From: a virus
DNA length: 64,000 nt
Strand: one strand, 5' to 3'
Virus record (IMG/VR): IMGVR_UViG_3300028833_000146
Span: 9,322 to 73,321 of that record
This document shows positions 2,648 to 63,410 of this stretch, in pieces. Positions within the stretch are counted from its first letter, which is position 1. Each line of letters opens with the position of its first letter. The translations under genes were made by a program, and so were the position numbers. Below the pieces are notes generated by a model. That model saw only the letters and a list, made by a program, of their open reading frames with translations, was not told the origin of the DNA and did not search any database.

Positions 2648-2670
2648 AGTCCATTCCCCTGTTGTCAATT

Positions 2671-3336
2671 CTATCGTACATTCGCAAGCTCTTCTTTATA
2701 ATATTTATTGTACAGTCTCTTTGCTTCCGTATTCCCATCTTTTGGAGTAAATATCGCTGTCATTGGAAGATGCATAGCAGCAGTCATGCCAACTGAAAGC
2801 GCAGTCATTGCTCCAGCAGCAACCCAATCGCTAATCTTGGTGGTTTTTTCAAACACCATTTTAACGTTATCTTGACCTAGTTTATTAGCTGCAGATTTAG
2901 ACAATTTCAGATCTTTGAAAGAAATATCTTTCACTTTTTCTTGTCCATACTTTTCTATAAGATTTGCGCAATGTTTCTTAACTTCCGCTTCTTTTTCTTT
3001 GTAATCTTTAGCTAATCGCATTGCTGTCGTTTGAGCAGCCGTAGCCTTTTCATATGCTCGTTGTGTACTTCGCTTTTTTGCATCTGGATCTTTTTCAAAC
3101 TTTTTCGAAGCCTTATCCTCAAGTTTCGCTGCTCGGTTCATAGCTCCGACAGTTGCTATACCATATATAGTAGCTTCTCTTCCTTTATTGTACGCATCTT
3201 TATTATCAGATTTCAGTTCTTTGTAATAACGTTTACGGCCATCTGCCGTCAATGTACCATCAGCATTCTGAAACCGTCTTACGCCCCATTTCTGACCGAG
3301 GACGCCATAATGATATAGTTCGTTATTATAATCCAT
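2671..3336 (-). CDS. GILGQKWGVRR-motif family protein 2 (K-rich)
   Basis: N-terminal motif HYGVLGQKWGVRRFQNADGTLTADGRKRY; lysine-rich coiled-coil-like remainder. Confidence 0.6.
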   Translation of the reverse strand: MDYNNELYHYGVLGQKWGVRRFQNADGTLTADGRKRYYKELKSDNKDAYNKGREATIYGIATVGAMNRAAKLEDKASKKFEKDPDAKKRSTQRAYEKATAAQTTAMRLAKDYKEKEAEVKKHCANLIEKYGQEKVKDISFKDLKLSKSAANKLGQDNVKMVFEKTTKISDWVAAGAMTALSVGMTAAMHLPMTAIFTPKDGNTEAKRLYNKYYKEELANVR

Positions 3337-3354
3337 AGTTTATCTGTCCTCTGA

Positions 3355-4056
3355 TCATCTAAATTTTTTTGTGACTTCGCGAATTTCTTCTTGGCTCACC
3401 CCGTTAAGGGACATATCAGTTACCTGATTTGACAATCTTCCTAGTTGTTTCTGTTTACTATCGCTAGACTTCTGAGATGCTTTATGACGATTATAAGCAT
3501 AGAGGCCTGCTCCAACTGCTACAGCACCCAAAGCAACGGCTCCTCCTAATCCTGCCATACCGCTTGAATACAGACTCTTTGCTAGTGTCGCTCCAAACTG
3601 TGAATTCATCAAGTTCCCAACTGCTGCTTTCGCAGATTCACTAATTGTAGAACCGGCTAAATTCTGTCCAAGAACTTTCTGAATTTGAGAACTCGCGTAG
3701 CTCAACGGATTATTAGCCAATTTATCTGCACCGTATTTTTCTAAAAATTTAGTAGCAACAGTCCTATACTTATCATTGCCAACTGCTTTGATGTAATTCA
3801 AATAAGAAAGGTCCCGAGCTTCTGCTAAGGTTCCAAGACTTTTAATCCCTAAGGCTGCAGCAGCAGTTCCTGTAGTTGTTGCGGCTAATCCACCAAGCTG
3901 TGCTTTAGAGTCCATCTTCTCTTCAAAATTTTCTTTATTCCCATAACGTTTTCTGCCGGCTTCAGTCAAAGTACCGTCTTCATTCTGATAGCGTCTTACT
4001 CCCCATTTCTGGCCAAGAATGCCGTGATGGCACAAGTAATCATAGTCGTAGTCCAT
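3355..4056 (-). CDS. GILGQKWGVRR-motif family protein 3 (Gly/Ala-rich, membrane-like C-terminus)
   Basis: AAGGAG RBS; N-terminal motif HHGILGQKWGVRRYQNEDGTLTEAGRKRY; C-terminal glycine-zipper-like hydrophobic stretch. Confidence 0.6.
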   Translation of the reverse strand: MDYDYDYLCHHGILGQKWGVRRYQNEDGTLTEAGRKRYGNKENFEEKMDSKAQLGGLAATTTGTAAAALGIKSLGTLAEARDLSYLNYIKAVGNDKYRTVATKFLEKYGADKLANNPLSYASSQIQKVLGQNLAGSTISESAKAAVGNLMNSQFGATLAKSLYSSGMAGLGGAVALGAVAVGAGLYAYNRHKASQKSSDSKQKQLGRLSNQVTDMSLNGVSQEEIREVTKKFR

Positions 4057-4074
4057 GTTGCATCATCTCCTTAA

Positions 4075-4557
4075 TTAGTCTTTATAAGCAATGTTCTTCT
4101 TTGTATATGCAACACGTCCGCTTGCATATACGCCATTCTTCACTTTACGCATATCATAGCCTTTATCTGCTATTCCAGGGGTGATACCCATCGATCCACG
4201 GTTTGCAACATACCTAATTACTCGTCCAGATGGTACCTCAATATCCCCGATTTTCTTATTAAATAGATCGGCTAATTTTCTATTATAGGCGTTCATGTAC
4301 GAAGAACTGATCTTGCCATCCTTGTTGTACTTTCTAATATTAGGCGTGACCTCAGTACGGAGATAGTTGTTCAGCTCTTTCTTAACCGACTTGTACACTC
4401 TCTTATGAATTCGCTTGTCTATTTTAGAAGCGAGCTTCAACTCTTTTTTATCAAGACGTTTCTGCCCAGCAGGGGTAAGTGTTCCATCGTAATTCTGATA
4501 GCGTCTTATGCCCCATTTCTGTCCGAGGATGCCGTGATGAACTAAATAATCCCCCAT
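4075..4557 (-). CDS. GILGQKWGVRR-motif family protein 4 (basic)
   Basis: AAGGAGA RBS; N-terminal motif HHGILGQKWGIRRYQNYDGTLTPAGQKRL. Confidence 0.6.
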   Translation of the reverse strand: MGDYLVHHGILGQKWGIRRYQNYDGTLTPAGQKRLDKKELKLASKIDKRIHKRVYKSVKKELNNYLRTEVTPNIRKYNKDGKISSSYMNAYNRKLADLFNKKIGDIEVPSGRVIRYVANRGSMGITPGIADKGYDMRKVKNGVYASGRVAYTKKNIAYKD

Positions 4558-5063: not shown

Positions 5064-6811
5064 TCGAACGCGTCTTTGTTAAGCTTGTATGCTATAAACG
5101 CATCCATCATAGCAGCGACATTATCGATCTTCTGCTCATGACGTTTCTTCCATAGCTTACGGTTTCCGTTCGTGTCTTCCAGAGTAATAGCATTACCCAT
5201 CGCAAATGACATAAGCTCTTCATCAAATATTAAGAGTCGGTCCTCTGCAAGCTTCTTAAGCTCACCAAGAGGTACCGACTCTGTTTTTGCACCCTGTATT
5301 ACTTTCTCTATTCCAAATGGTCCGTTCTCTGTTTCCCAACGTTCTACAAACGCCCTGGCATTATATGGGTCGAATCCAAAGCATCTAACGTCATACTGCA
5401 TCTCGTTTATATGATTGTCGAGGTCATCGTAAACTTCTGTAAGATCGAGTAACGACCCTTCCAGTACTATTAAACTGCCTTCTCTCATAAATTCTTCGTA
5501 CTTAAGCCGCATAGCAAGCGGCAGCTTACTAAACGTAAACGAAGAAATGTAGCTTCTGGTCTTAATACCGAATCTACCTCCGCCAAGAGGGAACATAAAT
5601 GTAAAGGCACAAAAATCGTCACCCTGTGAAAGATCAGCGCCCATAGCACACGGCATATTCCAATAACTCTGTCTTTTGTGAGGAATAGTTTCCTCATAGG
5701 TAAAGAAGTAAGTGTAGCCCTCCATAGGGATACCAAACCGCTTGGCAAGAATGTCGTTTCGTGCTGCGGGAACTTTCTCAGCTCTTTCTACATCCAACTG
5801 ATAAGTTTCGTAGCTTACTGTCTTTCCTATATTAGGATTAGCTTTAATCCACATTGCAGGATCTGCTACTTCGTCCACACTATCAAGCTTGTAATACCAA
5901 ATCGAAATGTGAGGATTAACATAGTCGCCTTTTAAGATGTCCATTAGTTCCATCTTAATAGTATCGCCACTACCATTTCGAACTGTACCCTCAGAACTCA
6001 TGGCTACTATAAGATAGTCGTCTACACCGCCCTTAGCTGCGCCTTGCTCAATTGCACCGATAGGATCTTCTCTAAGATCTCCGCTCAGCCATTCGTCAAC
6101 CGTAGCGCATTTTACTCGAAGGCCTTGCAACTTATTAATGCTCATAGGTCTTATTTCGAGGAGAGATCCGGTCAGAAAGTTCTCAATACCTTTCTTTGTA
6201 CTGGCTAGTTTTACTCGAGCAGCCTTTGAGCCAGTCGTGTTCTGCAAACTGCCCTCAGTTAAAAACTTAAATAAAGGCCCCCTTGATCTTACAATCGAAG
6301 TTCTTATTGGTGACAGTATTTCTTCAGCCTGTTTCATAGTAGGAGCGGTTGTAATTTGGTGAGTAGTAGCAGTGTCTATATTAAGAAAGTAATTTTGTAT
6401 GCAAGAACCGTACATGCTCTTCGCAGCACCTCGAGCAACTATAAGATACTGTTTATTTACGAGTCTCTTTTTTATGCGCCTTGTAACATAACGGCCACCA
6501 TGACCCTCGGTATAAGGCTCATATACAGTTCTTTCTACAAAATAGTACCAGCCAAATATCTGCTCAGCCCAGAGCTTAAATGTATCAAGTAGAACGAGGT
6601 CTGATCCGTCGGTCAAAGTAAGCTCATTCTCGCAATACTCAATAAATCCAGAAATAGCCTGATCATCGTAGTATACTCCAGGATTCGCTATAAGAGCATC
6701 AATACGATTCATCTCCATCGATATCTCTCTGCAAACTGGAATCTCACCACGAATCACAGCGTCTCTAAATTTACCGTAGTAAAGTGGCGTTGCAGTGTTC
6801 GAAAGTGACAT
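5060..6811 (-). CDS. terL: Terminase large subunit
   Basis: 583 aa; Walker-A-like LIVARGAAKS in N-terminal ATPase; C-terminal nuclease-like region (FGFDPYNARAF); Terminase_1-like organisation. Confidence 0.85.
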   Translation of the reverse strand: MSLSNTATPLYYGKFRDAVIRGEIPVCREISMEMNRIDALIANPGVYYDDQAISGFIEYCENELTLTDGSDLVLLDTFKLWAEQIFGWYYFVERTVYEPYTEGHGGRYVTRRIKKRLVNKQYLIVARGAAKSMYGSCIQNYFLNIDTATTHQITTAPTMKQAEEILSPIRTSIVRSRGPLFKFLTEGSLQNTTGSKAARVKLASTKKGIENFLTGSLLEIRPMSINKLQGLRVKCATVDEWLSGDLREDPIGAIEQGAAKGGVDDYLIVAMSSEGTVRNGSGDTIKMELMDILKGDYVNPHISIWYYKLDSVDEVADPAMWIKANPNIGKTVSYETYQLDVERAEKVPAARNDILAKRFGIPMEGYTYFFTYEETIPHKRQSYWNMPCAMGADLSQGDDFCAFTFMFPLGGGRFGIKTRSYISSFTFSKLPLAMRLKYEEFMREGSLIVLEGSLLDLTEVYDDLDNHINEMQYDVRCFGFDPYNARAFVERWETENGPFGIEKVIQGAKTESVPLGELKKLAEDRLLIFDEELMSFAMGNAITLEDTNGNRKLWKKRHEQKIDNVAAMMDAFIAYKLNKDAFD

Positions 6812-6814
6812 TGT

Positions 6815-7423
6815 TTATTGCTTTTGGCCTTTCTTCTTAAATAATCCCTTTTTAGATTCGTTCTTACCATTATCTCTAGCTTTTTCAAGCTTATCCTGCT
6901 TCTGCTGCTTGTCATTGGAATTGTTATTACCAATTTTGAAAGCTTTATTCAGTTCGTTGCTCATAACATCTTCAAAGTCTTTACCTGAAAATGCAGAGAT
7001 AGCAAAGGACTTACCTGCTGCCACAAGAGTAGGTTTCAGAACATCATGGACAAGCGCATTTTTAATTGGACCAGACGCTTTTTTACCTTTTTCTTGGTAA
7101 TTCTTTACAAAGTTCTGTTCCATCTGGGCTCTATTATTTAAATCTTTAAGCTCCTGATCCGTAAGAAGGCTAGGCTTCATTTTAGCAAGCTTAGCTCGTT
7201 GCTTAGCTTCATTTTTTCTTTTAGCCATAGCTTCTTTCTCAGACTGCTTTTGAGCTACTTTTAGCTCTCGTTTTTCTTTTGCCTGCTGCTGTTTTGCATA
7301 ACGTATTTTCCCAGCTTCAGTGAGACTTCCGTCTTCATTCTGAAAACGTCTTATACCCCACTTCATACCAAGAATCCCGCTATGCTGCAAATCGCCATCG
7401 GAACGTATGACCCTATATTCCAT
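6815..7423 (-). CDS. GILGQKWGVRR-motif family protein 5 (K/Q-rich coiled coil)
   Basis: Motif HSGILGMKWGIRRFQNEDGSLTEAGKIRY at aa 14-42; immediately upstream of terL. Confidence 0.6.
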   Translation of the reverse strand: MEYRVIRSDGDLQHSGILGMKWGIRRFQNEDGSLTEAGKIRYAKQQQAKEKRELKVAQKQSEKEAMAKRKNEAKQRAKLAKMKPSLLTDQELKDLNNRAQMEQNFVKNYQEKGKKASGPIKNALVHDVLKPTLVAAGKSFAISAFSGKDFEDVMSNELNKAFKIGNNNSNDKQQKQDKLEKARDNGKNESKKGLFKKKGQKQ

Positions 7424-9260: not shown

Positions 9261-9588
9261 TCTCCTGGGTACTCTGGCCGCTGTAACCTCTAAATGCCTT
9301 CATAGCATCAGCGTATAGTTCTTCGATATGCTTAGCAGATTTAAGTGCTTCGGTCTTTGCATCTAGCAACTGTGCCTGCTTAGCCATTATTTCTTTTTCT
9401 AACTTCTCTTTGGTCGAACCAAGCTTTAGATAATGCGTTATTACTTGTGAAGATGCCGTTCCATCTCTTAATTGCTGCTCCGCCAAATCAACAGCCAGTG
9501 CTATAAGTTGATTCTCTCGCGCTTCGGGAGTACCTGCAGGAGGACTTGGTAGAGTCGATTTTAACGGCTCTTTTCTAGTTTTTCCCAT
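9241..9588 (-). CDS. Hypothetical helical protein; possible terminase small subunit
   Basis: AAGGAGG RBS; 115 aa helical protein directly upstream of HNH and terL; no motif recognised. Confidence 0.35.
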   Translation of the reverse strand: MGKTRKEPLKSTLPSPPAGTPEARENQLIALAVDLAEQQLRDGTASSQVITHYLKLGSTKEKLEKEIMAKQAQLLDAKTEALKSAKHIEELYADAMKAFRGYSGQSTQENDEDLQ

Positions 9589-9920: not shown

Positions 9921-10083
9921 GTCTTCCTTTATGTATTATTTAAAGAATCATTTAAAGAGACGTAGGCAGAAAAGCAGAAGAAGTTTCTGTTGGTGTCATT
10001 ACAATCATCTGGAGAGGAGAAAAGCAGGGTCAACCATATTTCAAGAAAAACCTACGTCCCTTTAAATAACTCTCTAAATATAA

Positions 10084-10157
10084 TACCGAGGGAAGGATTC
10101 GAACCTTCGATCATACGATTATAAGTCGTCCGCTCAAACCTACTGAGCTGCCCCGGT
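10084..10157 (-). tRNA. tRNA with anticodon UAU (Ile, AUA-reading)
   Basis: Hand-folded cloverleaf: acceptor ACCGGGG/CCTCGGT (one G-U), D-arm GCTC/GAGC, anticodon loop CTTATAA, T-arm GAAGG-TTCGAAT-CCTTC, discriminator A; 74 nt. Confidence 0.8.
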
Positions 10158-10211
10158 AAAAACATTCTCAAAAATATCCCTCCGGAGAAATTCCGAAGAG
10201 GCCGGCGATGT

Positions 10212-10656: not shown

Positions 10657-10923
10657 CTAATCAAGTTTCATTTCTTTTGTTTCTTTAATGAACACATTTA
10701 AAGGATCATATTTAATAATTTCGTCAATTGCACGATTAATTTCTTTCTCATTTTCGATAATTGAAAGTTGATCAGAAGTATATGCAAAACGACCAATCAT
10801 TCGAGTTGCTCTATTTCCTGTATAATTCTCATAAGCTTCCCATTCATCTCGTTCATTAAAGTAACTATAAGGATTGTCTTTCGTTGTAAGAGCACTAAAT
10901 AGCAATTGGAGCACCCCCTTCAT
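10657..10923 (-). CDS. Hypothetical protein
   Basis: 88-aa ORF overlapping the 3' end of the RNAP-like gene by 29 nt; no RBS seen; weak call. Confidence 0.3.
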   Translation of the reverse strand: MKGVLQLLFSALTTKDNPYSYFNERDEWEAYENYTGNRATRMIGRFAYTSDQLSIIENEKEINRAIDEIIKYDPLNVFIKETKEMKLD

Positions 10924-13900
10924 CTACTTGCATGTTGTTTTCAGCACCTTGTGAACCGAATCCAACAGCAATACGATCGACGGCACCTACAGAAATACCC
11001 AAAATGTCGGCTATGGTGGCTGGGCTGTAACCTTTTTCAAGATAGTTTCGAATTCTAGCAGCTTTTGATTCACTAACTTGATTTTTGTAATCTTTAGGCA
11101 TAGCTCTGTCTCTTAGCTTGTCCATGTCAGTGTTCTCAAGAATCTGTTTCAATTTATTTGCACTTATTGCGCCTGCTTGAATAGCTTCCCATTCTTCATC
11201 AGATACGTCTATACGTGCCTTCTTAGCCCCATACCGTACCCGTGCCTCTGCTAGCGCTTGGGATTTGACCTTTTTTTCATCTTCTGATGACATATTTGGA
11301 TTGTCTTGCTTTTTAGTCTTGAAAATCCAGTTAGCAGAGAGCTGTGCTTGCCGTTCGCGGGGGGAGTTCTTAAGGGCGTCGTCTAATTTATTATTCAATG
11401 TCGCAATTTCATTCTGATAACGGGCAGCAGCTTCCTTACTATAGGGGGTAGGGGCGGTAGCAATTAGTTCTTTTCTTGCTCTATTAGCAAGGGCATAAAG
11501 ACTATTCGCATAGTTAGCGTACGCAAGCTCTTGCTGCGTCTGATAATCTGACACCAAATATCCAGCGTCACCATACGTCTCTAGGGCGTACTGCATCTTA
11601 GAGATCTTTTGCTTCTTTACAGTAGGCTTATCCTCATATCCAACAATAAGAGGCTTCTGAATATCCATACCGGTTTTAGGGTCCTGTATGGTTATCGTTT
11701 CCTTTATTTTACGCCCATGACTGTCCTTTAAAACGACACCATTTTCATCTCTTTTATACTCGTATATGGGCTTATTATATGACTCGCCTGTTACCTTAAA
11801 GACTTTTTCACCTGTAGAAATATCAATTCCGTTTTTTACATTTGGATTGTTTGGATCGGTGTATGCTGTACGCCGTTTCGGAATATCCATAGGTGATTTT
11901 GACTTGGATATTAACGTAGATGCGCCGCCATTAGATTTTCCTTGATATTTAATATAAAGTTCTTTGACCTTATTATCTTTAGCACTCTGTCTCCAATCTA
12001 GATGATGTTTCTCAGCATCAATTATAACCATGGAGTGCTTGACTGCTCTACATATTTCATCCTCGTCTGCACCTTTAAGCGTCATATCAGTTATCAAATT
12101 GGATATTTTACCCATCTGATCCTGTTTCCTAAACCCATGCGCAGCATCAACAGGATATAAAGGAGAATTCTTATCTGTGATCTCGTACTGGTCTGTTGTA
12201 AAGTTCTCTAGCCCTTTCAACTTTGGGGTGGCTTTTATTTTGGTGCCAACGCCACCAAGTGATATCGGTATAACAAGGGCTGTATCGCCATCGAAATCTG
12301 CACCTGAAAGCTGAGAAGCGGCCTTCATGTTTATTCCGACTGCATCCGGTGCTTGTCCTATAATATCAATACCAGGTTTATATTCATTATTAACTTTCAA
12401 AACCGGTATTTCAAAGGTTCCTCCGTGCGGATGTCTAACAAGCACAACTGTATCACCAGTATGATAATTTGGCGCATAAATCTGTCCTTCAGGAATATCA
12501 GGAAGAGGCAGCAAAAGAGCACTAGTTTGTCCAGGAAGAGACTGTGCTTTCAAATGGACAGCCGAAGCATCGCAATCATCTGCGAATGACTGAAGATACT
12601 TTTGTCTGATCACCGGATTCGTGATGGCCATAATATCTTCATACTCATTCAACTTGCCTTGATAAGTAATATCCAGCTGCTGCTTGATAAGCGGAATATT
12701 CTGCTTTGAAAGAAACTGTGCAGAAAGGCGTTTCTTCCAGTTCATCCAGTCGCCTTCAGAGTTAACAATGTTAATAGCAGAAAGATGCTCTTTTCCGTCA
12801 GAACCAATATAGAATCTTTGACCGCCTTTTTCTTCTGGCTTAATCGCCGCACCAAATACGTTGTCTCTGTCTACAACTTTAATTCCATTTTCTTCTTTTG
12901 TTTTAAACTTTTTAAGTACATCTGACAAAGGTGTTCCTTCTGGATGCTTTGTATTAAAACGAACGTCAACTCCATCTGGAAGATTGTCGGAATAAATGGC
13001 CATTCCTTTGAGATAGTATTTGTCATCTACAGCAATTCTTACCTGAGCATAGTTTGATTTGCCAAGAGAAATGTCTTCTACTCCTCTTCGCAACTCAATT
13101 AGTCCATCCATTTCCGTTCCGCCAGTTCCATCTGGTTTGCCGTAGTTAATGGCTATGCGACTTGAATCTATGCTTTGAGGATAATACATTCCGTATTTAG
13201 TTCTCTCAAAACCCGGATGTTTTTCCTGAGCGGCGATAGAATATCCATCGTAATCGACAACAGATCTAATGTCTTCTAAGTTGTTAAACACATCTTTCTT
13301 GGTCACTCCCGGAGGAGCAAGAACTTTAAGGTGCGTGAATGAACCTGGATTTGTTGCCTGAGGAACAGTCAAATCAGAGAACAAAGAATATCCATTAGCC
13401 TTCAACAACTGTGCAGCTGCATTAAGGGTAACATCTGATACTCCGAGTTCTCTCTCAACACCAGCGCCAATATCCAGCATACCAACAGCATCTACCTGTT
13501 CCTTAAGTCTGAGAGCAATTGAAGATGCAGTTTTCTTACCTAATGCATTGTCCTGGGGTTTTAAATAGTTTCTGACTGTTCCTTCTGACAGGCCAAGCAT
13601 TTTGCCAATAGTACCGTTAGAATATCCATGGCGCTTCAAATCGACAACTTGCGCAATGTCGTCGATTTTCTTTGCTTCTTTGTTTGTGGTTATCTTCGCT
13701 CTAAACTCTCCAGTGGACATGTTCATGTCATGAGCGATTTGTGTATTGTTCCAATCAGGATGCTCTTTCTTTATCTCGTTTAATCGAGAAGCAAAGCCTT
13801 CATCTCTTTGAAACGGATTTTTTCCTGAACCAAGCGGATATCGACCTGATCCAACAGGCGCTCCATCAAGTTTACTTCTTCCTTCATGAGCTAAACTGAA

Positions 13901-13948
13901 AATATCCAGATCGTTGATCTCATTAAAGTAGGTTTCTTCCATGATCAT
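10895..13948 (-). CDS. Putative YonO-like single-subunit RNA polymerase (beta-prime-type DPBB with ADFDGD) flanked by N- and C-terminal HTH domains
   Basis: ~1017 aa; VVLVRHPHGG...GINMKAASQLSGADFDGDTALVIPIS aligns by eye with the beta-prime NRAPTLHR...NADFDGDQMAVHVP catalytic region; HTH-like GYSNGTIGKMLGLSEGTVRNYLK near the N-terminus and GYSPATIADILGISVGAVDRI near the C-terminus; start chosen at ATG 13948 (ATGA overlap with upstream stop), 13972 or 13942 are alternatives. Confidence 0.5.
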   Translation of the reverse strand: MIMEETYFNEINDLDIFSLAHEGRSKLDGAPVGSGRYPLGSGKNPFQRDEGFASRLNEIKKEHPDWNNTQIAHDMNMSTGEFRAKITTNKEAKKIDDIAQVVDLKRHGYSNGTIGKMLGLSEGTVRNYLKPQDNALGKKTASSIALRLKEQVDAVGMLDIGAGVERELGVSDVTLNAAAQLLKANGYSLFSDLTVPQATNPGSFTHLKVLAPPGVTKKDVFNNLEDIRSVVDYDGYSIAAQEKHPGFERTKYGMYYPQSIDSSRIAINYGKPDGTGGTEMDGLIELRRGVEDISLGKSNYAQVRIAVDDKYYLKGMAIYSDNLPDGVDVRFNTKHPEGTPLSDVLKKFKTKEENGIKVVDRDNVFGAAIKPEEKGGQRFYIGSDGKEHLSAINIVNSEGDWMNWKKRLSAQFLSKQNIPLIKQQLDITYQGKLNEYEDIMAITNPVIRQKYLQSFADDCDASAVHLKAQSLPGQTSALLLPLPDIPEGQIYAPNYHTGDTVVLVRHPHGGTFEIPVLKVNNEYKPGIDIIGQAPDAVGINMKAASQLSGADFDGDTALVIPISLGGVGTKIKATPKLKGLENFTTDQYEITDKNSPLYPVDAAHGFRKQDQMGKISNLITDMTLKGADEDEICRAVKHSMVIIDAEKHHLDWRQSAKDNKVKELYIKYQGKSNGGASTLISKSKSPMDIPKRRTAYTDPNNPNVKNGIDISTGEKVFKVTGESYNKPIYEYKRDENGVVLKDSHGRKIKETITIQDPKTGMDIQKPLIVGYEDKPTVKKQKISKMQYALETYGDAGYLVSDYQTQQELAYANYANSLYALANRARKELIATAPTPYSKEAAARYQNEIATLNNKLDDALKNSPRERQAQLSANWIFKTKKQDNPNMSSEDEKKVKSQALAEARVRYGAKKARIDVSDEEWEAIQAGAISANKLKQILENTDMDKLRDRAMPKDYKNQVSESKAARIRNYLEKGYSPATIADILGISVGAVDRIAVGFGSQGAENNMQVDEGGAPIAI

Positions 13949-14595
13949 ACTACTGCGTCCTCTGCTTTCCATTTACTTACGATTTTGTCCAATGTTATAA
14001 TCTGGTTCATTGCAGTCTGAATATCCATAGGATCTGGATCGCTTTCAATAATCTCGTCGCTTTGATAAATCCTCAAATGTGTAGAAATATCCATAGGTTT
14101 TACTCCGTACTCCAGACAAAAAAGTGCAGAATAAATTAGTGGCTGTTCAATATGAGCCGGAGTAACTCCACTTTTATAATCGTGAATTCTTAATTCTTTG
14201 TCGCGAAAATATATAGCGTCAGTTGTCCCGAAACAATTGTCAGAATAATAGAGCAGAACTTCTGAATCCATCTGAAAACCGATAGCATCATTTACATAGC
14301 GCTTCAAATTATCAAACTTAGAATCGAGATCAATCACGCTCATCGGTAAACCCTTGTCGAGCAAGTACATCATCACATCATTTTTGTCAGTCTTGTACAT
14401 TCGCAGCCGATATTTAATTCTCTTTTCGGCATATTCATGAAGGGTTGTTCCGATCACAGTAGCGTACTGAGCTTTGTACCTTCGAAATATCAATTCTAAA
14501 GATTCTTCGTCAGTTCCATAATTAAGCCAGCTGTAACCGCTTGGATTAAATAGTGCATGCTTACCTACTAAATTTGAGTGCTTGTTCCAGTTCAT
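13945..14595 (-). CDS. PD-(D/E)xK-family nuclease (exonuclease-like)
   Basis: 216 aa; TTDAIYF...ELRIHDYKSG resembles a D...(D/E)xK core; AGAGG RBS. Confidence 0.45.
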   Translation of the reverse strand: MNWNKHSNLVGKHALFNPSGYSWLNYGTDEESLELIFRRYKAQYATVIGTTLHEYAEKRIKYRLRMYKTDKNDVMMYLLDKGLPMSVIDLDSKFDNLKRYVNDAIGFQMDSEVLLYYSDNCFGTTDAIYFRDKELRIHDYKSGVTPAHIEQPLIYSALFCLEYGVKPMDISTHLRIYQSDEIIESDPDPMDIQTAMNQIITLDKIVSKWKAEDAVV

Positions 14596-14869: not shown

Positions 14870-15455
14870 TTCTTCTCTCCAAAAAGAAATAGGAGATGGA
14901 AAATATCCATGAAGAACACACTCCGTCCATTTTCTCTTTCTCTCCTATTATGCGCGGTGTATTTTTTACGCTGAAATTAATTGGCATTAAAAAATGTAAA
15001 AATAGCTATAAAAATACGTCTTATTTTTTGTCCACAAAAAATTGGCCAAATTGCCCAGTTTTTTTTTTATTTAAATAAAAAAAAAAAAAAAAAAAAAAAT
15101 TAATAATAGGAAAAAAGGTGGGCAAACTGGCCAAGATTATTTTTTGTACCCACAAAAAATCAATTTTATTGCCACTTTTTTATCGTTTTTCGCGTTTTTC
15201 GTCAACTTTGGAAATATTTGTGCCCACAAAAAATAGCCAATTTTGCCCACTTTTTTTCTGGCCAAAACCCACTTTTTCTGGCCAAAAACGATTATTTGTG
15301 GGCACAAAAAATATCCATTTTTCAAAAAATGCAAATTTTGGCCAGTTTTTATCGATTTTGGCCAGTTTTTGAAAAGTCAAATCTGGCCAAAAAACACGAT
15401 TATTTGTGGGCACAAAAATTATTTTTCGCTATTATTTGTGGGCACAAAAAATATC
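14870..15455. repeat. Non-coding palindrome/iteron cluster with AT-only palindrome T10-ATTTAAAT-A23; candidate replication origin or regulatory hub
   Basis: Six copies of the palindrome TTTGTGGGCACAAA(AAAT) (15028, 15143, 15217, 15292, 15396, 15430); at least eight TGGCCAAAA / TTTTGGCCA units; direct repeat CACTTTTTCTGGCCAAAA twice; homopolymers T10 (15059-15068) and A23 (15077-15099); the ORFs predicted here are low-complexity artefacts. Confidence 0.6.
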
Positions 15456-44414: not shown

Positions 44415-45485
44415 TCAATCATAAAATGACAAAATATTAGTCTGAACGTTGAAGTCCATAATGTAGCATTTGCGAAGTTCGTATTTGCAAGTATTCTCGT
44501 TGTATTCTTCATACATTACCGGAAACAGTTCAATACGAATTCCTTCATCTAAATATCGTTTTTCACCAGTGTGAGGATCCACAGCTACAAATCTCATCTC
44601 TCTTGTCTCAGGATCGATTTCGGCATGGTATCCCATGATTTGTCCAGCTGCAGTTCTCTTAAAGCCAAGCTCTTTGAGAATATCATTCAAGGCATAAGTG
44701 TGCCTGTAGCTGTATCTAATCTGTCTATTAAAGTATGTTTCCCAGTCTCGAACGAACTTGTTATTGTAAATATAATTTTCTTTAAGTGTCTTAGGATCAT
44801 ACTCGAATTCTTCTGTATGCTCGGCGTCAAATATCTGTGCATACATGGAGTGCTTAGCAAGTTCCTCACTAAGTACTTCCTGCTTAGTACGTCTGATCTT
44901 CGGTTTTCCTTCACGATCAAGTTTCGGCTCACCGTTCTTGTTTGTCTCTACTTCTTCGTATTCTCTTTCAGTAATACCATAATAGAGCTTTCGTTCCTCG
45001 TCATCTCCAACTTTGTCCCTGACACGATCACGGTATCCAGCAAGTGTGCTCGCATAAAGGCCACATGTTTCAATCGCATTAGACAGCCTATCGCTAATAA
45101 TGCCAACGCCTTTGCCGATTAAACCAAGCGAAACAATCTCTAATCCGACAGCCGGGCCTATAACTTTGCAAATTTTCAGGCCGCCATTAGCATAGGCTTC
45201 ACAAAGAAGAACCCAGCCTTTCTTGCCAGCTTCCTCGAGCTTTTCGCGATCTTTTGCTGTTTCTCTAGCTTCTGAAATATCATTCTTGACTTCTTCGATG
45301 GTTTCCTTAGTCTCTTTACCTGCTTTCCAGGCAAGGTACGCAGAAGCGACAGAGCCTATCATGCCAAGCGTTACATAAATAATAGGTTTTGACTGGTAGA
45401 GTTTATTTGTCGCCTTATTTACGAGGGCACTTTCGATGAGCTTGTTCTTAATACTCATAATATGTTTACTTCCTTTCAAGAGCAT
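44415..45485 (-). CDS. Two-TM membrane protein, family member A
   Basis: Two N-terminal TM helices plus a soluble domain ending ...ALNDILKELGF; paralogous to 46342, 47496 and 48371. Confidence 0.5.
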   Translation of the reverse strand: MLLKGSKHIMSIKNKLIESALVNKATNKLYQSKPIIYVTLGMIGSVASAYLAWKAGKETKETIEEVKNDISEARETAKDREKLEEAGKKGWVLLCEAYANGGLKICKVIGPAVGLEIVSLGLIGKGVGIISDRLSNAIETCGLYASTLAGYRDRVRDKVGDDEERKLYYGITEREYEEVETNKNGEPKLDREGKPKIRRTKQEVLSEELAKHSMYAQIFDAEHTEEFEYDPKTLKENYIYNNKFVRDWETYFNRQIRYSYRHTYALNDILKELGFKRTAAGQIMGYHAEIDPETREMRFVAVDPHTGEKRYLDEGIRIELFPVMYEEYNENTCKYELRKCYIMDFNVQTNILSFYD

Positions 45486-46341: not shown

Positions 46342-47235
46342 TCATATGGAATACGGAATATAATTCGGTCCATTCCTAAATCGGATTACTTTATACGTAA
46401 ATCCTTGATCAGTAATGTTAATGTCGCCAGAGAACTGACAATATTCAACAAGCCCATCATTCACGTTAAATCCGAATTCTTCACCAAGTCCTGTCATGTC
46501 TAACCCAAGAATAGAATAATACTCGTTCAGTTTAACGTAACAATCATCGACACCGTAATAGCATCCTCTACCATAGCGAATATCATTGATTCTCATATTA
46601 AGTTCATTAAGGCACGAGTCTATGAACGCTGGACTTGCTTTGACCCATCTCTTTGTATAATAGTCCAAATATAACTGGGATCCTGTTCCAGTATCAAACA
46701 CGTTAGTGAGCCCATCTTCACTTCTATTTCGTGAAACATGCTGCTCTGCTGCTCGCTCCTCAATTTCATCGGCTTTCTCATCACCAAGAAGTTCTCTTGC
46801 TGCCGCTTTTGTGTCTTTGGAATCAGCGATATAATACGCGAGTGCTGTTGCCATCGACGACAGACGGTCCGTATTTTCTTTCTGAGCAAGAAGTAAAAAT
46901 ATAACACCGGCAGACTGAGCAAGAAGCGGAAGGATCCAATATTTGTACACTTCTGGAACTGCTTCTTTTACAGGAATCGGAGATGCAACAATTTCATCAT
47001 ACTTTTCCTGATCCTCATCGGATAAGTTTTCGTACTCCGACGGATCAGCGAGAATATCATTAAGTTTTTCCGCCTTCATGTCCGCCGTTTTGTTCATAGT
47101 TTTTACGGTTGCCATAACAGCCAACGCACTTCCGGTTATCATTAACACGATTCCGGTGCCAGTCATAATAGCAGGTCTGTTCTGAACAAATGAAGCTTTC
47201 ATAGAATTAAATGCGCTTTTTACATCAAATTTCAT
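46342..47235 (-). CDS. Two-TM membrane protein, family member B
   Basis: MKFDVKSAFNS... two TM helices; C-terminal LNEYYSILGLD. Confidence 0.5.
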   Translation of the reverse strand: MKFDVKSAFNSMKASFVQNRPAIMTGTGIVLMITGSALAVMATVKTMNKTADMKAEKLNDILADPSEYENLSDEDQEKYDEIVASPIPVKEAVPEVYKYWILPLLAQSAGVIFLLLAQKENTDRLSSMATALAYYIADSKDTKAAARELLGDEKADEIEERAAEQHVSRNRSEDGLTNVFDTGTGSQLYLDYYTKRWVKASPAFIDSCLNELNMRINDIRYGRGCYYGVDDCYVKLNEYYSILGLDMTGLGEEFGFNVNDGLVEYCQFSGDINITDQGFTYKVIRFRNGPNYIPYSI

Positions 47236-47495: not shown

Positions 47496-48359
47496 TTAAG
47501 ACTCAGAAATAAACCACTCGTAGATCTCATCGAATGTCGGCTCAGAATCAAATATAATTAAATACCCGTACGTCCCATCATCAAAATAAATCTTCTTATG
47601 TGTAAAGCCAACCCAGTCATACCCGTTATCGAACCCCGCTTCTTTCGACCAACCATCACCATCTCCGTATGACACTTTGTCCGCTCCAAACATTGTTAAT
47701 AGCTCATTAAGACTAGCAAATTCCCCGTTGCGATCATTCCATAAGAACTTATTAAACGCATACTCTGCCATCAGAACTTCAAGCATCGTTGATTTGAACC
47801 ACATTCGATCACCATCATCTGAGTTTACGCCTTCGATATAGAATGTCATCTCATTGCCATAATCCTCGTGCTGTAGATCATCATCACTAAAATATAAATG
47901 ATGCGGCTTATTAAAAATCTGGTTTTTATCTTCCGGTTTCTTATCTCTTAATTCAGAAGCGAGAGCTCCAACTGCAAAGCCTTTGTACTTATCTAATCGT
48001 GCGGACTGATTATTAACAATTTGTTCGAGAGAGCCAACGGATTCGAGCGCCTTTGTATTTCCACGGCGAATGCACCACGATGTTCCAAATGCTGCAAGAA
48101 CTGGCGGTGTAAATATCACTGCAGTGCCAATAATTTCTTTAATTTTTTCTTTTAAAGAAAGTTCTTTGAATTTTTTCGGAACTGTAGATGACTCTGTGAT
48201 ATTGTCTTTAGAGCCCATTTCCCATTCCATCCACTTTGTTGTAGAAACAAATGTTAGAACTCCAGTTGCAGCTACTCCAGCAATACTATACCATGAAAAT
48301 GCGGTAGGAGATATAGCTTTAGTTTTAACTGTGGATAATAGGTCTTTAAAATTGATCAT
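47496..48359 (-). CDS. Two-TM membrane protein, family member C
   Basis: MINFKDLLSTVKTKAISPTAF...; ...TMLEVLMAEYAFNKF...NELLTMFGAD. Confidence 0.5.
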   Translation of the reverse strand: MINFKDLLSTVKTKAISPTAFSWYSIAGVAATGVLTFVSTTKWMEWEMGSKDNITESSTVPKKFKELSLKEKIKEIIGTAVIFTPPVLAAFGTSWCIRRGNTKALESVGSLEQIVNNQSARLDKYKGFAVGALASELRDKKPEDKNQIFNKPHHLYFSDDDLQHEDYGNEMTFYIEGVNSDDGDRMWFKSTMLEVLMAEYAFNKFLWNDRNGEFASLNELLTMFGADKVSYGDGDGWSKEAGFDNGYDWVGFTHKKIYFDDGTYGYLIIFDSEPTFDEIYEWFISES

Positions 48360-51040: not shown

Positions 51041-51222
51041 TTAGCCTGTTTATCGAAATAGTCATTTAAAATACTCTTGAATTTTGTTACATCTGTCCAT
51101 TTTGCTGAATCGTCTTCAAACGTATCTCGAACGCCATCAGGATCAGACTCAGAAAAACACTCGAATGATCCATCTTCGTATTTTACAAGCCTAATCGTCT
51201 CTAGTCTTTCAAGATCAATCAT
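51037..51222 (-). CDS. Small acidic protein
   Basis: 61-aa ORF. Confidence 0.4.
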   Translation of the reverse strand: MIDLERLETIRLVKYEDGSFECFSESDPDGVRDTFEDDSAKWTDVTKFKSILNDYFDKQAK

Positions 51223-51404
51223 TCTTTTTCTCCATTATTATCTAGGTAATTGTTCACAGTAGACTCTGACATTCCGAGTACTTCAGCAATCTGCTCTATA
51301 GAATATCCAGAATCGAGCAATGCTTTTGCTCGAATTTGAAGTTCTCGATCCTGTTTCTTTTTCTCTTCGCTAGCTTTTACCCGTCTTTTTGGTAGTTTCT
51401 TCAA
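51219..51404 (-). CDS. Small HTH DNA-binding protein (sigma region-4 / LuxR-like helix-turn-helix)
   Basis: GYSIEQIAEVLGMSESTVNNYL. Confidence 0.5.
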   Translation of the reverse strand: MKKLPKRRVKASEEKKKQDRELQIRAKALLDSGYSIEQIAEVLGMSESTVNNYLDNNGEKE

Positions 51405-56324: not shown

Positions 56325-56429
56325 CCTCCTCGTCTAGTTTTATGAAAAATATCTTTTAAATAAGTAAAAGGCCGATCGTTAAGACCAGCCTTTCCAGTTA
56401 AAGCATGATATATTATATGAACTCCAAAT

Positions 56430-56639: not shown

Positions 56640-56966
56640 TCACTTCATAAAACTTGTGTCATAATATGGCGGGAACGTGATTGTGAACTTATATGAATCA
56701 TCAGACCCAACATAAAAATAAATATTGTCTTTATTCATTCGATCTTTAAACATAATCCTCTTCAGATTAAAACGAAGATCGTCTGAAATTTGGATCTTCA
56801 TTTTATCGCAGAGTGCCGAAATACTTACATACCCTTTAGCCGCAAGAAGATCATTGTATTCTCTAATAAACTCTATCGCTGCCTCTTCATCTCGGAAATT
56901 AAATTGGTCCAAAATATCATTCACTTTATCCTGTGTATGGTATGAAAGCGCATATTTAGTTACCAT
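56640..56966 (-). CDS. Hypothetical protein
   Basis: 108-aa ORF. Confidence 0.4.
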   Translation of the reverse strand: MVTKYALSYHTQDKVNDILDQFNFRDEEAAIEFIREYNDLLAAKGYVSISALCDKMKIQISDDLRFNLKRIMFKDRMNKDNIYFYVGSDDSYKFTITFPPYYDTSFMK

Positions 56967-58215
56967 TCTTTTTCTCCTCTTTTATTTCTTTAATCGCGTC
57001 GTTCAATTCGCACCAAGCTATTCCAGCCCCTATCATTTCTGGTCCCTCTTTGAAAATATCATTCGCTAAACCACTGACCATGCGTACTACATAACTTCTT
57101 GGGACGCATCGTAGATTTGAAAGCTCACAGTTTTGTTTATTCCCGTCCAAGAATATAATGCAATGATCTTCCGGAATAGAGCCATTGGCTTGCTCCCAAA
57201 TATAACGGTGTTTTGTTACCCAATTCTCTCGCCAATTTTTTGTTGAGTCATTTACTGGAATATCTGAAAGTTTTATCCAAATATAGCCGCTGTTAACTAT
57301 CTCAGTTCCAATGGGTTTAGTGTTTGTTGCAACAGGGGGCTTCTTAGGAATCTGTGTTCTTCCTTCTTTTTCTCTCAAGTTTCTGATTCTTCCGAAAACG
57401 CTATCCATGCTAAGTTTTATACCAAATTTATCTGACATGTCTTCAGCAAGTTGCGAATAAAACATATTCTGGTAATTGTCTAGTAGGTACTTGTCCATAT
57501 CATCGGTCCATCGCACTTTGCGTCTTAAGTTTAACCTGGTTACTTTGTTATTAATGCTATTCTCAGTCATCTGAACGTTAAACTTCTTGGACATAGTTGT
57601 AGCCAGCTCTTCATAGGTCATATATTCAAAATTATCAATAAGAAACTGGATCATTTCGTCGGTCCAATATGTCTTTCCTTTATGGCCCTTTTTAAAGATG
57701 TTGGGATCTTTTTTCAAACGCATTTGTCTAAGCTGATACGAAATACCCCATACAGTAATTGAGAGATTGAACTTTTCGGACATCTCAATAGCTAAATCTT
57801 CGTATTTCATCTTGGCATAATTATTAGCTAAAAACTCGCGCATTTCATCAGTCCAAATACTACTGTTATTCTGAGTTAATCCTAATTTCCGTAACTTATG
57901 CCCTATGCTTTCTTCGTTCATCGGAACGCCATATCTTTCAGACATAATAGATGCAAGATCTTTATGAAGCATGGACCCATAATTATCAACAAGAAACCGA
58001 ACCATTTTGTCGGTCCAATAAGATTTTCCTTTACATCCTTTTTTCAGCCCTAACTGACCAAGCTTTCTAGAAATATAATTATGATCCATAACTACACAGA
58101 ACTTTTCACTCATTACAGCAGCTAGATCGTCATAGTTCATTAAAGTATAGTTGCTGGACAGAAATTGGATCATCTCCTCTGTCCAGCGAACATCTGACCG
58201 TCTATTTCTACTCAT
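56956..58215 (-). CDS. HNH endonuclease with five tandem Myb/SANT-like DNA-binding repeats (homing-endonuclease-like)
   Basis: Five ~50-60-aa repeats WT(D/E)(D/E)M..FL..NY..M.Y..LA..MS.KF...; C-terminal HNH (IIFLDGNKQNCELSNLRCV); start ATG 58215 overlaps the upstream stop, since the track start 58302 adds a junk hydrophobic N-terminus inside the upstream gene. Confidence 0.6.
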   Translation of the reverse strand: MSRNRRSDVRWTEEMIQFLSSNYTLMNYDDLAAVMSEKFCVVMDHNYISRKLGQLGLKKGCKGKSYWTDKMVRFLVDNYGSMLHKDLASIMSERYGVPMNEESIGHKLRKLGLTQNNSSIWTDEMREFLANNYAKMKYEDLAIEMSEKFNLSITVWGISYQLRQMRLKKDPNIFKKGHKGKTYWTDEMIQFLIDNFEYMTYEELATTMSKKFNVQMTENSINNKVTRLNLRRKVRWTDDMDKYLLDNYQNMFYSQLAEDMSDKFGIKLSMDSVFGRIRNLREKEGRTQIPKKPPVATNTKPIGTEIVNSGYIWIKLSDIPVNDSTKNWRENWVTKHRYIWEQANGSIPEDHCIIFLDGNKQNCELSNLRCVPRSYVVRMVSGLANDIFKEGPEMIGAGIAWCELNDAIKEIKEEKKNGN

Positions 58216-58465
58216 CGGCAGCCACCAAAATCGCAATCTCAGAAGATTTAGGCAGCTTCTGCTCATAAACAAGCTTCTGAGCGCGCAGGATAACATCCGC
58301 ATTATTTATCATCTGCTTTGAAAGGCTAGAAAAGACCGCTGCAGAATCAAGAACTTTCTTCTGCGTTTCTCTCGGCAGGTTCTCGCTATCTTTTACCTTT
58401 TTAAGTTCTTCTCCGAGCATGTTATGCAGATCGATAAGATTCATTCTCTTTCTCCTTTTTAGCAC
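58208..58465 (-). CDS. Hypothetical protein
   Basis: 85-aa ORF. Confidence 0.45.
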   Translation of the reverse strand: MLKRRKRMNLIDLHNMLGEELKKVKDSENLPRETQKKVLDSAAVFSSLSKQMINNADVILRAQKLVYEQKLPKSSEIAILVAADE

Positions 58466-58469
58466 GTCA

Positions 58470-58823
58470 TTAAGATCCGATTAGTTCGTGTTCAATTATT
58501 TCAAAATAAAAATCCCACAGTTTCCATGGACGCTTTAGATCTTCATCTTCTTCATCGTCAGCATCTGAAATCTGAGCACCTCGAATATATTTTCTGGATA
58601 CCTCAGTATTGCGCCATGGATTTCTTTCATTCAATTCCTGTTCATCATATTCTTTTATTAGTTTTGGAAATTCGAACTCACTAACTTTTAGAATATCAAG
58701 ATTTTTCACTGCGTTCTCTGCCAGCTCTTTTGTGGCATAGAAACCAATCGCCATTTCATAGTCTTCACGAGCTTCATAAGATTCATAATTAGCGCAACGG
58801 CAGCGGATTTCATAAATTTTCAT
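58470..58823 (-). CDS. Hypothetical protein (Cys-containing)
   Basis: ATG 58823 after AAAGGAGAAAAAG (track start 58961 translates the RBS as ERRKRM). Confidence 0.45.
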   Translation of the reverse strand: MKIYEIRCRCANYESYEAREDYEMAIGFYATKELAENAVKNLDILKVSEFEFPKLIKEYDEQELNERNPWRNTEVSRKYIRGAQISDADDEEDEDLKRPWKLWDFYFEIIEHELIGS

Positions 58824-59325
58824 TCTTTTTCTCCTTTCTAAGCAGCCGAAGAAATATCTCTTCGAACTTCTCCCATTCTTCGTCTCGCTCCTCTGAGTCG
58901 AGATTACGATCTCGTGTATATTCATATGACTTCTGAATATCAATACCACCATGTTTTTCAAGTACTTTGTCCACTACTTCGACTGGAACCCATCCGTAGA
59001 CCGTATCCATTGGAACATTCGGATTTTCAGCATATCCTATCAATTCTTCATCTTCTTCAGTGGGAAAGCCGAGCTCAACGCTTTTATACGGTTTAAACTT
59101 TGAAACACGAATTTGGGACCTCCATCTTGGAATGAAACCGAACTTTGAAATATCAATCTGAGATTTTCTTGGCTCACAATAATGGTCCTCGCTAGCCTGA
59201 ATAGATACTCCGAATCCATCCTTACAGATAACAAATGGTCTTCTAAATTGCTGAAACGATGACCAGTCAGAATAAGTATGGACAGTACCACACCAAAATG
59301 CTTCAAGAAACTGATTAGTATTCAT
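58810..59325 (-). CDS. Hypothetical protein
   Basis: ATG 59325 after AAAGGAGAAAGAG. Confidence 0.45.
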   Translation of the reverse strand: MNTNQFLEAFWCGTVHTYSDWSSFQQFRRPFVICKDGFGVSIQASEDHYCEPRKSQIDISKFGFIPRWRSQIRVSKFKPYKSVELGFPTEEDEELIGYAENPNVPMDTVYGWVPVEVVDKVLEKHGGIDIQKSYEYTRDRNLDSEERDEEWEKFEEIFLRLLRKEKKNENL

Positions 59326-59651
59326 TCTCTTTCTCCTTTCCAAATAAACCCAGTCTGTTCGTACAAAAGCTTAGGGGAAATATAATAGTTAATCTTCCCT
59401 TTCCGTGAGTCGATGTCCTGCACGTCTAGGATCACATGACCGTTCCTAGTTGCAGTTCCAATCGGCAACCAACCGGCAATGATACCTGCATGTATCCAAC
59501 AAGGATCCTTACCAAACACTCGAGCAGCTACTTTAGTCGGAACTGATCCTGGAGGAAATGTCACGTCTGGCTTTAGCTTCTCTCCAAGCTGTGCCTTAAT
59601 ATCTGTTATCAGTTGTTCTAATTCTCCAATTGTTAACTGCGAAATATCCAT
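59322..59651 (-). CDS. Hypothetical protein
   Basis: 109-aa ORF. Confidence 0.4.
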   Translation of the reverse strand: MDISQLTIGELEQLITDIKAQLGEKLKPDVTFPPGSVPTKVAARVFGKDPCWIHAGIIAGWLPIGTATRNGHVILDVQDIDSRKGKINYYISPKLLYEQTGFIWKGERE

Positions 59652-60299: not shown

Positions 60300-60323
60300 A
60301 ATCTACCTCCAAATATAATAGTA

Positions 60324-60352
60324 TTTCATTATATTAGCTGTAAAAAATACGG
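60324..60352 (-). promoter_or_regulatory. Conserved phage promoter-like motif
   Basis: plus strand TTTCATTATATTAGCTGTAAAAAATACGG. Confidence 0.5.
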
Positions 60353-62080: not shown

Positions 62081-62110
62081 CTTTCATTAAAGAGACTGTA
62101 AAATTTACGG
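62081..62110 (-). promoter_or_regulatory. Conserved phage promoter-like motif
   Basis: plus strand CTTTCATTAAAGAGACTGTAAAATTTACGG. Confidence 0.5.
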
Positions 62111-62547: not shown

Positions 62548-62577
62548 TTTTCATTATAGGACCTGTATTTTTTACGA
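62548..62577 (-). promoter_or_regulatory. Conserved phage promoter-like motif
   Basis: plus strand TTTCATTATAGGACCTGTATTTTTTACGAA. Confidence 0.5.
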
Positions 62578-63380: not shown

Positions 63381-63410
63381 TTTCTCATTATAGAAACTGT
63401 AATTTTTGCG
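63381..63410 (-). promoter_or_regulatory. Conserved phage promoter-like motif
   Basis: plus strand TTTCTCATTATAGAAACTGTAATTTTTGCG. Confidence 0.5.

Follow-up and report, generated by a model that had tools for sequence, protein, structure and literature searches.

What does a phage gain from a gene that joins a row of Myb-like repeats to the fold of a homing endonuclease? The question is raised by a gene in the 64,000-nucleotide stretch of viral DNA analyzed here (positions 9,322 to 73,321 of IMG/VR record IMGVR_UViG_3300028833_000146, hereafter the window), where the minus-strand open reading frame (ORF) 56956-58215 is translated into 419 amino acids (aa) and a stop, and where five tandem repeats precede a C-terminal HNH domain. 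A reading made from the DNA without database searches (the sequence-only reading) had taken the product for a homing-type nuclease guided by a modular DNA-recognition array. Our analysis led us to a different view: the product is probably a modular protein that binds DNA without cleaving it, descends from an endonuclease of the I-HmuI type (HNH_3) and acts with a small partner protein of the family phrog_2044 in early DNA metabolism or regulation. Directly established, and the foundation of this view, are the repeats and the folds, a loss of catalytic residues that is itself conserved, a repeat number that varies and a gene pair that is conserved.

We begin with the C-terminal domain. Its match to Pfam HNH_3 (PF13392) over aa 335-377 scores 57.1 bits (gathering cut-off 24.8; E=1.3e-15), which confirms that an HNH domain follows the array, and the domain shows the expected fold, a beta-beta-alpha core preceded by a beta-hairpin and an HR helix, with a structural match to I-HmuI (PDB 1u3e). 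The I-HmuI query sequence was an exact match to 1u3e, and BLASTP set the register, with D357...V376 of the window protein facing D77...N96 of I-HmuI. In I-HmuI, Asp74 and Asn96 reportedly are metal ligands, His75 the general base and Asn87 a structural residue (Shen et al. 2004). These roles agree with the general rule for His-Me finger nucleases, by which the metal is held by an acidic residue or a His that precedes the catalytic His and by an Asn or a His where the helix begins (PMC5714182). In the window protein, Ile354 stands at the position of Asp74 and Phe355 at that of His75, and Val takes the place of Asn96 (Table 1); neither the general-base His nor the metal ligands of an I-HmuI-type His-Me finger are present. 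The structural Asn367, which is invariant in the family, is retained, as are the D-G-N loop and the HR helix.

Phenylalanine at the catalytic column is the family consensus: it was found in 116 of 150 family domains, compared with His in 13 and Tyr in 8. It is present in all six copies from cultured or related phages (Staphylococcus, Streptococcus, Vibrio and a syntenic relative) and is also retained in relatives that are less than 30% identical. A canonical relative with the His, P0039, reads IHHKDENKLNN...SASEH at these positions. The family alignment contains no invariant His or Tyr in the C-terminal domain. Among His-Me finger proteins the beta1 His is nearly invariant, and groups in which His and Tyr are both absent, Smad MH1 and ENPP among them, are treated as inactive DNA binders (PMC5714182); in I-HmuI-like proteins, exchange of the His for Ala abolishes nuclease-dependent phage interference (bioRxiv 10.1101/2025.09.07.674715). 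Since the catalytic residues are lost and no invariant His or Tyr could stand in for them, we read the domain, in the light of this rule and this precedent, as a pseudo-nuclease. Two histidines were considered as substitute catalytic residues and rejected: H351, the only nearby one, is Arg in 96%-identical orthologues, and H336 is Gln or Tyr in relatives.

The array in front of this domain is regular. The motif W-T-[DE]-x-M starts at aa 11, 67, 121, 184 and 236, which gives periods of 56, 54, 63 and 52 aa and bears out the five consecutive repeats of 52-63 aa that had been noticed; the pattern WT(D/E)(D/E)M given for them is essentially right but approximate, as repeat 2 reads WTDKM. Over a 46-aa core the five repeats are 33-50% identical to one another (mean 0.41), far above 5,000 shuffles (mean 0.059 +/- 0.011, maximum 0.107). 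Their nucleotide identity is 46-63%, with 28-54% at the third codon position; the duplications are therefore old, and a DNA-level repeat search picked up only repeat 2 against repeat 4.

Comparison had to be made at the level of the fold, since nothing significant was retrieved from the PDB by sequence, whether the query was the full protein, P0039 or a profile of the C-terminal domain, the repeat or the partner. The AlphaFold2 model of the full protein, built with 39 homologues (mean predicted local distance difference test score, pLDDT, 86), shows five helix-helix-helix units; after them come a beta-hairpin and a helix, then the beta-beta-alpha core, and a long helix closes the C-terminus. 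Modelled singly, a repeat forms with high confidence (pLDDT 92.5) a bundle of three helices, about 50 aa in size, in which helix 3 has the place of the recognition helix, as is characteristic of the Myb/SANT fold. Its best structural matches are Myb/SANT/GcrA-type helix-turn-helix (HTH) domains, the closest being the GcrA DNA-binding domain (DBD) and a small-terminase HTH, and the best Foldseek match of the full model is the Myb array of SNAPC4 (7xur_A). Further structural neighbours include the SANT domains of CoREST, MiDAC and Bdp1 and the recognition elements for ribosomally synthesized and post-translationally modified peptides (RiPP) of SkfB and PqqD.

Sequence models follow this fold only in part. 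Pfam reported no Myb family for the window protein at E<=10 and gave only marginal HTH matches for the repeats, and the repeat is without a Pfam model of its own; of 38 repeat units scanned singly, one matched Myb_DNA-bind_4 (E=0.06). One repeat of the relative P0135 passes Myb_DNA-binding (PF00249) with 30.5 bits against a cut-off of 24.4. GcrA (PF07750) gave no Pfam match and was not recovered by the PDB profile search, so that the likeness to it is one of fold only. The description as Myb/SANT-like repeats followed by an HNH-family domain is thus correct at fold level.

Across 605 repeat units the conserved columns form the hydrophobic core ([YFW]-T-x-E...[FW]-[LI]..N...E-L...F-N..F-G...T...I), and the highest entropy is found in the loop between helices 1 and 2 and on the exposed face of helix 3. 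The pattern fits a recognition helix with diversifying contacts and not a TALE-like single-site code. For the proposal that the variable positions between repeats might encode base specificity, their place on the exposed face of helix 3 counts in support. Not so for the code of TALE type, nor did the proposed analogy to TALE or NUMOD arrays survive. The families NUMOD1, NUMOD3 and NUMOD4 are absent from the Pfam matches at E<=10, and TALE repeats are near-identical two-helix units of 33-35 aa with one variable di-residue, whereas the repeats described here have 52-63 aa and three helices, are 33-50% identical and vary in many columns without a single hypervariable site. Four of the five linkers carry a charge of +3 to +4 (linker 2 is neutral), and linker 3 is a relic of the motif F-x-K-G-H-x-P-x-N-K-G that stands between HTH and HNH_3 in shorter relatives. 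Family-wide, the repeats have a net charge of +1.8 on average, and helix 3 one of +2.2.

The sequence-only reading did not recognise this architecture, which is by no means unique. Word-indexed searches returned 39 relatives, which have between none and four repeats and are 151-332 aa long, the shortest being the repeat-less P0039 (151 aa); the window protein is longer than all of them. An exhaustive search with a 38-sequence repeat profile extended this to 5,066 cluster representatives at E<=1e-3 (1,593 at E<=1e-10), with up to 10 matched stretches in one protein. Among 185 proteins, 30 have at least five repeats, and 19 of these also have an HNH_3-like C-terminus; others are arrays alone, and one is fused to NUDIX. 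The C-terminal domain is encoded at no fewer than 525 loci in IMG/VR. In PHROGs, the 419-aa protein belongs to phrog_1891, labelled 'HNH endonuclease' (E=1.5e-57, five matched stretches), and the repeats also match two families labelled 'transcriptional regulator'. Because relatives with 1-10 repeats are abundant, the five-repeat form is the upper end of a large unnamed family. Homologues with three repeats have them orthologous by position, and the five repeats of the window protein cannot be paired with these one by one, a sign that the duplications were independent.

The gene is also, as far as the sequence comparisons tell, maintained and not decaying. Five variants of 95-96% identity from separate samples have intact ORFs with all five repeats, and the C-terminal domain is the best conserved part, with 59-62% identity to the nearest homologues compared with 26-52% for the repeats. 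Moreover, the locus is syntenic in relatives with 2, 3, 1+3 or 5 repeats. Three of them (L004, L088 and L089) have a family member at the same place, after the same partner gene; in L004, a syntenic relative on an 84.7-kb ENA scaffold, positions 5444-6879 contain two tandem members of 186 aa (one repeat) and 292 aa (three repeats), both with Phe at the catalytic position. The gp049 of Staphylococcus phage Southeast (L001, 3986-5059) has two complete modules of HTH and F-type HNH_3 in one protein, which means that the whole module, and not only the HTH repeat, can duplicate. An empty target site in relatives lacking the gene, which had been suggested as a mark of homing, was not found: the three syntenic relatives all have a member at the locus, and the downstream 108-aa gene has no relatives in IMG/VR, hence no gene-less relative was available. 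In Streptococcus suis phages, comparison of presence and absence revealed mosaic replacements and not clean insertions or deletions.

The conserved gene directly upstream was overlooked by the sequence-only reading. Genes of phrog_2044 encoding helical proteins of 74-80 aa stand directly before family members in L004, L088, L089, Staphylococcus phage Southeast, Streptococcus phages phi20c and SF39 and Vibrio phage K303. When a pair is defined as a phrog_2044-like gene of 74-80 aa ending within about 150 nucleotides (nt) upstream of an HTH/F-type HNH_3 gene, it is present in 68 of the 73 IMG/VR loci with enough upstream DNA. When these loci are grouped by 70% identity of their C-terminal domains, 13 of the 15 clusters that could be tested have the pair. 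The partner proteins of the window and of L004 are 78% identical; the arrays of the two differ in repeat number and are about 45% identical. In the window, the stop codon of the upstream gene and the ATG of the main gene (58215) overlap by 8 nt (ATGAGTAG), and the two genes are, by this arrangement, translationally coupled. The reading frame could extend to 58302; the start at 58215 was chosen because of this overlap and because public assemblies call the identical 419-aa product (P0001; L003). The family label of phrog_2044, 'RNA polymerase beta subunit', has no Pfam or PDB support for the partner and is probably a propagated annotation error. A near-identical context of ribosome-binding site and start, AAAGGAGAAAGAGAATGAAT on the coding strand, is common to four genes (58439-58458, 58818-58837, 59320-59339 and 51217-51236), one of which is the partner.

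In the mechanism that we favour, five Myb/GcrA-like three-helix HTH modules with short basic linkers between them would each offer a different recognition helix (helix 3) to the DNA and together read a long asymmetric site. The C-terminal beta-beta-alpha domain, with its fold and structural Asn kept, would serve only as a DNA- or protein-contact module, because the general-base His and both metal ligands have been lost. The 419-aa protein would be produced together with its translationally coupled 78-aa partner from an early or middle operon, and both would probably work together in phage DNA metabolism or regulation. Here we infer DNA binding, one sub-site per repeat, an interaction with the partner and the biological role. 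More broadly, and as a tentative proposal, the family might represent a widespread two-gene phage module, in which 1-10 fast-evolving Myb/GcrA-like HTH units would recognize long sites, and a naturally dead I-HmuI-type HNH domain and the conserved 78-aa partner would together convert this binding into a non-nucleolytic function. This function could be to hide sites or breaks from the nucleases of host defence or from competing homing endonucleases, or else to control the start of the replication/recombination module.

Several observations weigh against a non-cleaving DNA binder. His occupies the catalytic column in 13 of the 150 family domains, among them P0115, which also has the helix Asn, and judging by these residues nuclease activity may persist in part of the family. 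Other polar residues are invariant (E305, K315, K335, E341 and D357) and could form an unrecognised active site. DNA binding is predicted from the modelled fold, whose class includes protein-binding SANT-type domains; the repeats of the window protein have net charges of -2 to +1, acidic to neutral, where typical Myb repeats are basic, and their relative orientation in the model is unreliable (predicted template modelling score, pTM, 0.46). No candidate target site was found, and literature searches retrieved no study of any family member.

DNA binding alone might serve a more specific end, namely that of an anti-defence or competition factor, which would mask breaks or sites from host break-sensing nucleases or rival homing endonucleases and in which contact with DNA would be the reason for keeping the dead HNH domain. 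The defence GAPS4 is attenuated even by I-HmuI-like proteins that a His-to-Ala exchange has made catalytically dead, and masking of breaks was proposed by the authors (bioRxiv 10.1101/2025.09.07.674715). The next gene after the pair in Streptococcus phages is one for Mu Gam-like end protection, and the fast-evolving arrays beside a conserved partner and C-terminal domain fit an arms race. We nevertheless consider this explanation unlikely, since the GAPS4 precedent comes from unrelated coliphages and a sequence-specific multi-HTH array is not obviously required for binding breaks; PADLOC defence models gave no match, a weak check given that the PADLOC library contains no anti-defence proteins.

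That the gene encodes an active site-specific homing or nicking endonuclease, with the five HTH repeats setting a long target and homing as its means of spread, is decidedly unlikely, even though the HNH_3 match lies far above threshold, the fold matches I-HmuI, modular HTH arrays are typical of homing endonucleases of His-Me finger group 2 (PMC5714182), the gene is free-standing among small early genes and a minority of relatives keeps the His. With Phe, Ile and Val, the general base and both metal ligands are gone; Phe is the conserved state of the family with no invariant His or Tyr as a substitute, the His-to-Ala exchange kills the activity of an I-HmuI-like enzyme (bioRxiv 10.1101/2025.09.07.674715), and the locus is syntenic and paired with phrog_2044 instead of sporadic. 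On these grounds the homing-type nuclease of the sequence-only reading is not supported.

The repeats might bind proteins and not DNA, as SANT-like interaction modules of a scaffold for host or phage proteins such as the transcription machinery, a very improbable role to which the charge of the window repeats, the SANT, SkfB and PqqD neighbours and the label of the partner family would lend themselves. Yet this label sits on a 78-aa helical protein without Pfam or PDB support, the repeats are net basic family-wide with a basic helix 3 and strongly basic linkers, DNA is what the best-matching domains (GcrA DBD, small-terminase HTH) bind, and the array is fused to a DNA-binding nuclease fold. 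Homing endonuclease genes are known to degenerate after fixation and the catalytic residues are lost here, but a functionless, decaying remnant is scarcely tenable in view of intact ORFs in the five variants, a Phe kept in relatives below 30% identity, a C-terminal domain that is the most conserved part and a gene pair conserved across phages of Firmicutes and Vibrio.

How does a non-cleaving DNA-binding protein of this kind compare with known systems? WhiA, a LAGLIDADG protein with an HTH, has kept a nuclease fold for DNA binding after its catalytic residues were lost. The Smad MH1 domain, derived from a His-Me finger, likewise retained the nuclease fold for DNA binding after catalytic loss (PMC5714182). 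Both resemble the present case, but they belong to different lineages and contexts, and in the window family DNA binding is a prediction. With the phage homing endonucleases of the I-HmuI/HNH_3 type (His-Me finger group 2) the protein shares the HNH_3 match, the fold of 1u3e, the structural Asn, the D-G-N loop, the HR helix and the fusion to modular HTH-type DNA-binding units (PMC5714182). It differs from I-HmuI in the exchange of His75, Asp74 and Asn96 for Phe, Ile and Val, in having its DNA-binding modules at the N-terminus as five Myb/GcrA-like repeats, in place of NUMOD or the C-terminal helices of the I-HmuI type, and in the pairing of its gene with phrog_2044. The likeness to the GcrA DBD (PDB 5yiu) is at fold level, without a significant sequence match, and GcrA combines one DBD with a sigma70-binding domain, whereas the window protein has five copies fused to a nuclease-like fold. 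Compared with tandem Myb proteins (c-Myb R1-R3, plant R2R3, SNAPC4 Rh-Rd), its repeats reach no Pfam Myb model, show no triad of regularly spaced Trp residues and carry less positive charge, and they belong to a bacteriophage protein fused to HNH_3. The phrog_1891 proteins of cultured phages (for example Southeast_049, phi20c_0042, SF39 and K303_0042) are of the same family, with the same layout of HTH and F-type HNH_3 and phrog_2044 upstream; they have one or two repeats, in Southeast as two complete modules, and intact F-x-KGH-x-P-x-NKG linker motifs, which the window protein with its five repeats lacks.

Members of the family are thus already in databases under generic annotations, and HNH_3 proteins with HTH modules are a known kind. 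The conserved loss of the active site, the Myb/GcrA-like arrays of variable length and the partner gene appear to be undescribed in the searchable literature. The label 'HNH endonuclease' stands on thousands of phage genes that belong to this family, and if they are catalytically dead, a possibility that the conserved His-to-Phe change indicates, these annotations mislead. The family would then be a natural case of a homing-endonuclease scaffold kept for DNA binding alone, with a bearing on the benefit that homing-endonuclease-like genes bring to their phages. If masking or control were its function, the effect that mutated homing endonucleases reportedly have without nuclease activity would find in it a natural parallel shaped by selection. 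The compact three-helix repeat, which has no Pfam model and occurs in 1-10 copies with variable recognition helices, is a possible modular DNA-recognition scaffold, and phrog_2044 with the main gene, for all the misleading label of the partner, provides a concrete two-gene unit.

Table 1. Features of the gene pair and its surroundings (positions in the window).
Feature	Position	Strand	Remarks
Gene for the 419-aa protein	56956..58215	-	five HTH repeats and degenerate HNH_3 domain; stop codon 56956-56958
Repeat 1	58048..58185	-	aa 11-56; Myb/GcrA-like three-helix HTH; AlphaFold2 helices 13-22, 28-39, 45-54
Repeat 2	57880..58017	-	aa 67-112; from motif, identity and AlphaFold2
Repeat 3	57712..57855	-	aa 121-168; from motif, identity and AlphaFold2
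Repeat 4	57529..57666	-	aa 184-229; DNA 63-70% identical to repeat 2
Repeat 5	57367..57510	-	aa 236-283; from motif, identity and AlphaFold2
Basic linker 3 (KDPNIFKKGHKGKTY, net +4)	57667..57711	-	charge calculation
Other basic linkers	58018-58047, 57511-57528, 57316-57366	-	charge calculation
C-terminal I-HmuI-type (HNH_3) domain	56959..57315	-	aa 301-419; PIGTE beta-hairpin, KHRYIWE helix, beta-beta-alpha core, long C-terminal helix
Degenerate active-site codons Ile354-Phe355	57151..57156	-	BLASTP register to 1u3e
Asn367 codon	57115-57117	-	keeps the structural Asn (I-HmuI Asn87)
Val376 codon	57088-57090	-	replaces I-HmuI Asn96 (metal ligand)
Partner gene, 78-aa helical protein, phrog_2044	58208..58444	-	E=5.5e-8; stop codon overlaps ATG of main gene
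Nearest upstream copy of repeated promoter-like motif	60315..60351 (box 60327-60351)	-	putative operon start for partner and main gene
Terminator-like hairpin, 12 pairs and T run	56366..56394	-	downstream of gene; putative operon end

All genes of the window phage lie on the minus strand, including those for portal, large terminase, a YonO-like RNA polymerase and a 1,319-aa polymerase-primase. The gene pair stands in a run of small early or middle genes, with a dUTPase downstream; in Streptococcus phages it precedes a Gam-like/gp157 gene, a helicase, Erf and the single-stranded DNA-binding protein SSB. Neither the gene nor the window region 50-64 kb has close relatives among cultured phages (megablast), and the phage has none in the phage or IMG/VR collections. 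A scan of genome contigs with the full protein as query gave a single distant match, in a Nitrosomonas metagenome-assembled genome, and identified no host; outside the gene, a scan of the window showed neither the repeat nor the C-terminal domain. In L088 (1715-2752) and L089 (4075-5106), a protein of 343-345 aa with Pfam matches to HTH_3, sigma-70 region 4 and the RNA polymerase alpha C-terminal domain (alpha-CTD) is encoded one or two genes downstream of the family member.

The promoter-like motif of Table 1, CATTA-N6-CTGTAWWWWTTDCG, occurs in 16 same-orientation copies within 14946-63555, with 0.06 expected by chance; besides the one in Table 1 these include 62085-62109, 62552-62576 and 63386-63410. 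Read on the minus strand, which is the coding one, the motif has a TATAAT-like element and, 5-6 nt upstream of it, a box CGTAAA/TTTACG that is nearly palindromic, and most copies in the 60-64 kb region come after terminator-like hairpins. The motif may represent a phage-specific class of promoter or operator, with a spacing unlike that of a standard -35/-10 promoter. As a target of the 419-aa protein the box was considered and rejected, because its near-palindromic form suits a dimer better and nothing ties it to the protein.

Elsewhere in the window, the minus-strand gene 10895-13972 encodes a 1,025-aa protein of phrog_4291 (E=1e-300), a YonO-like single-subunit RNA polymerase family labelled 'RNA-dependent RNA polymerase', with an extra N-terminal HTH-like stretch at aa 90-183. 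Clustered direct repeats (TTTGTGCCCACAAAAAAT... and AAACACGATTATTTGTGGGCACAAAAA) with inverted-repeat character lie within 15025-15454, a region without long ORFs; they resemble iterons and may mark a replication origin. Near portal and terminase, at 2159-4557 and 6815-7423 on the minus strand, five to seven ORFs share a 110-nt segment of 69-75% identity (cores 2526-2635, 3215-3324, 3932-4041, 4442-4551 and 7287-7396) and form a paralogous gene family. Three paralogues of phrog_2152 follow one another on the minus strand at 44415-45485, 46342-47235 and 47496-48359, and the only tRNA gene of the window, a tRNA-Ile with anticodon TAT, lies at 10083-10158 on the same strand.

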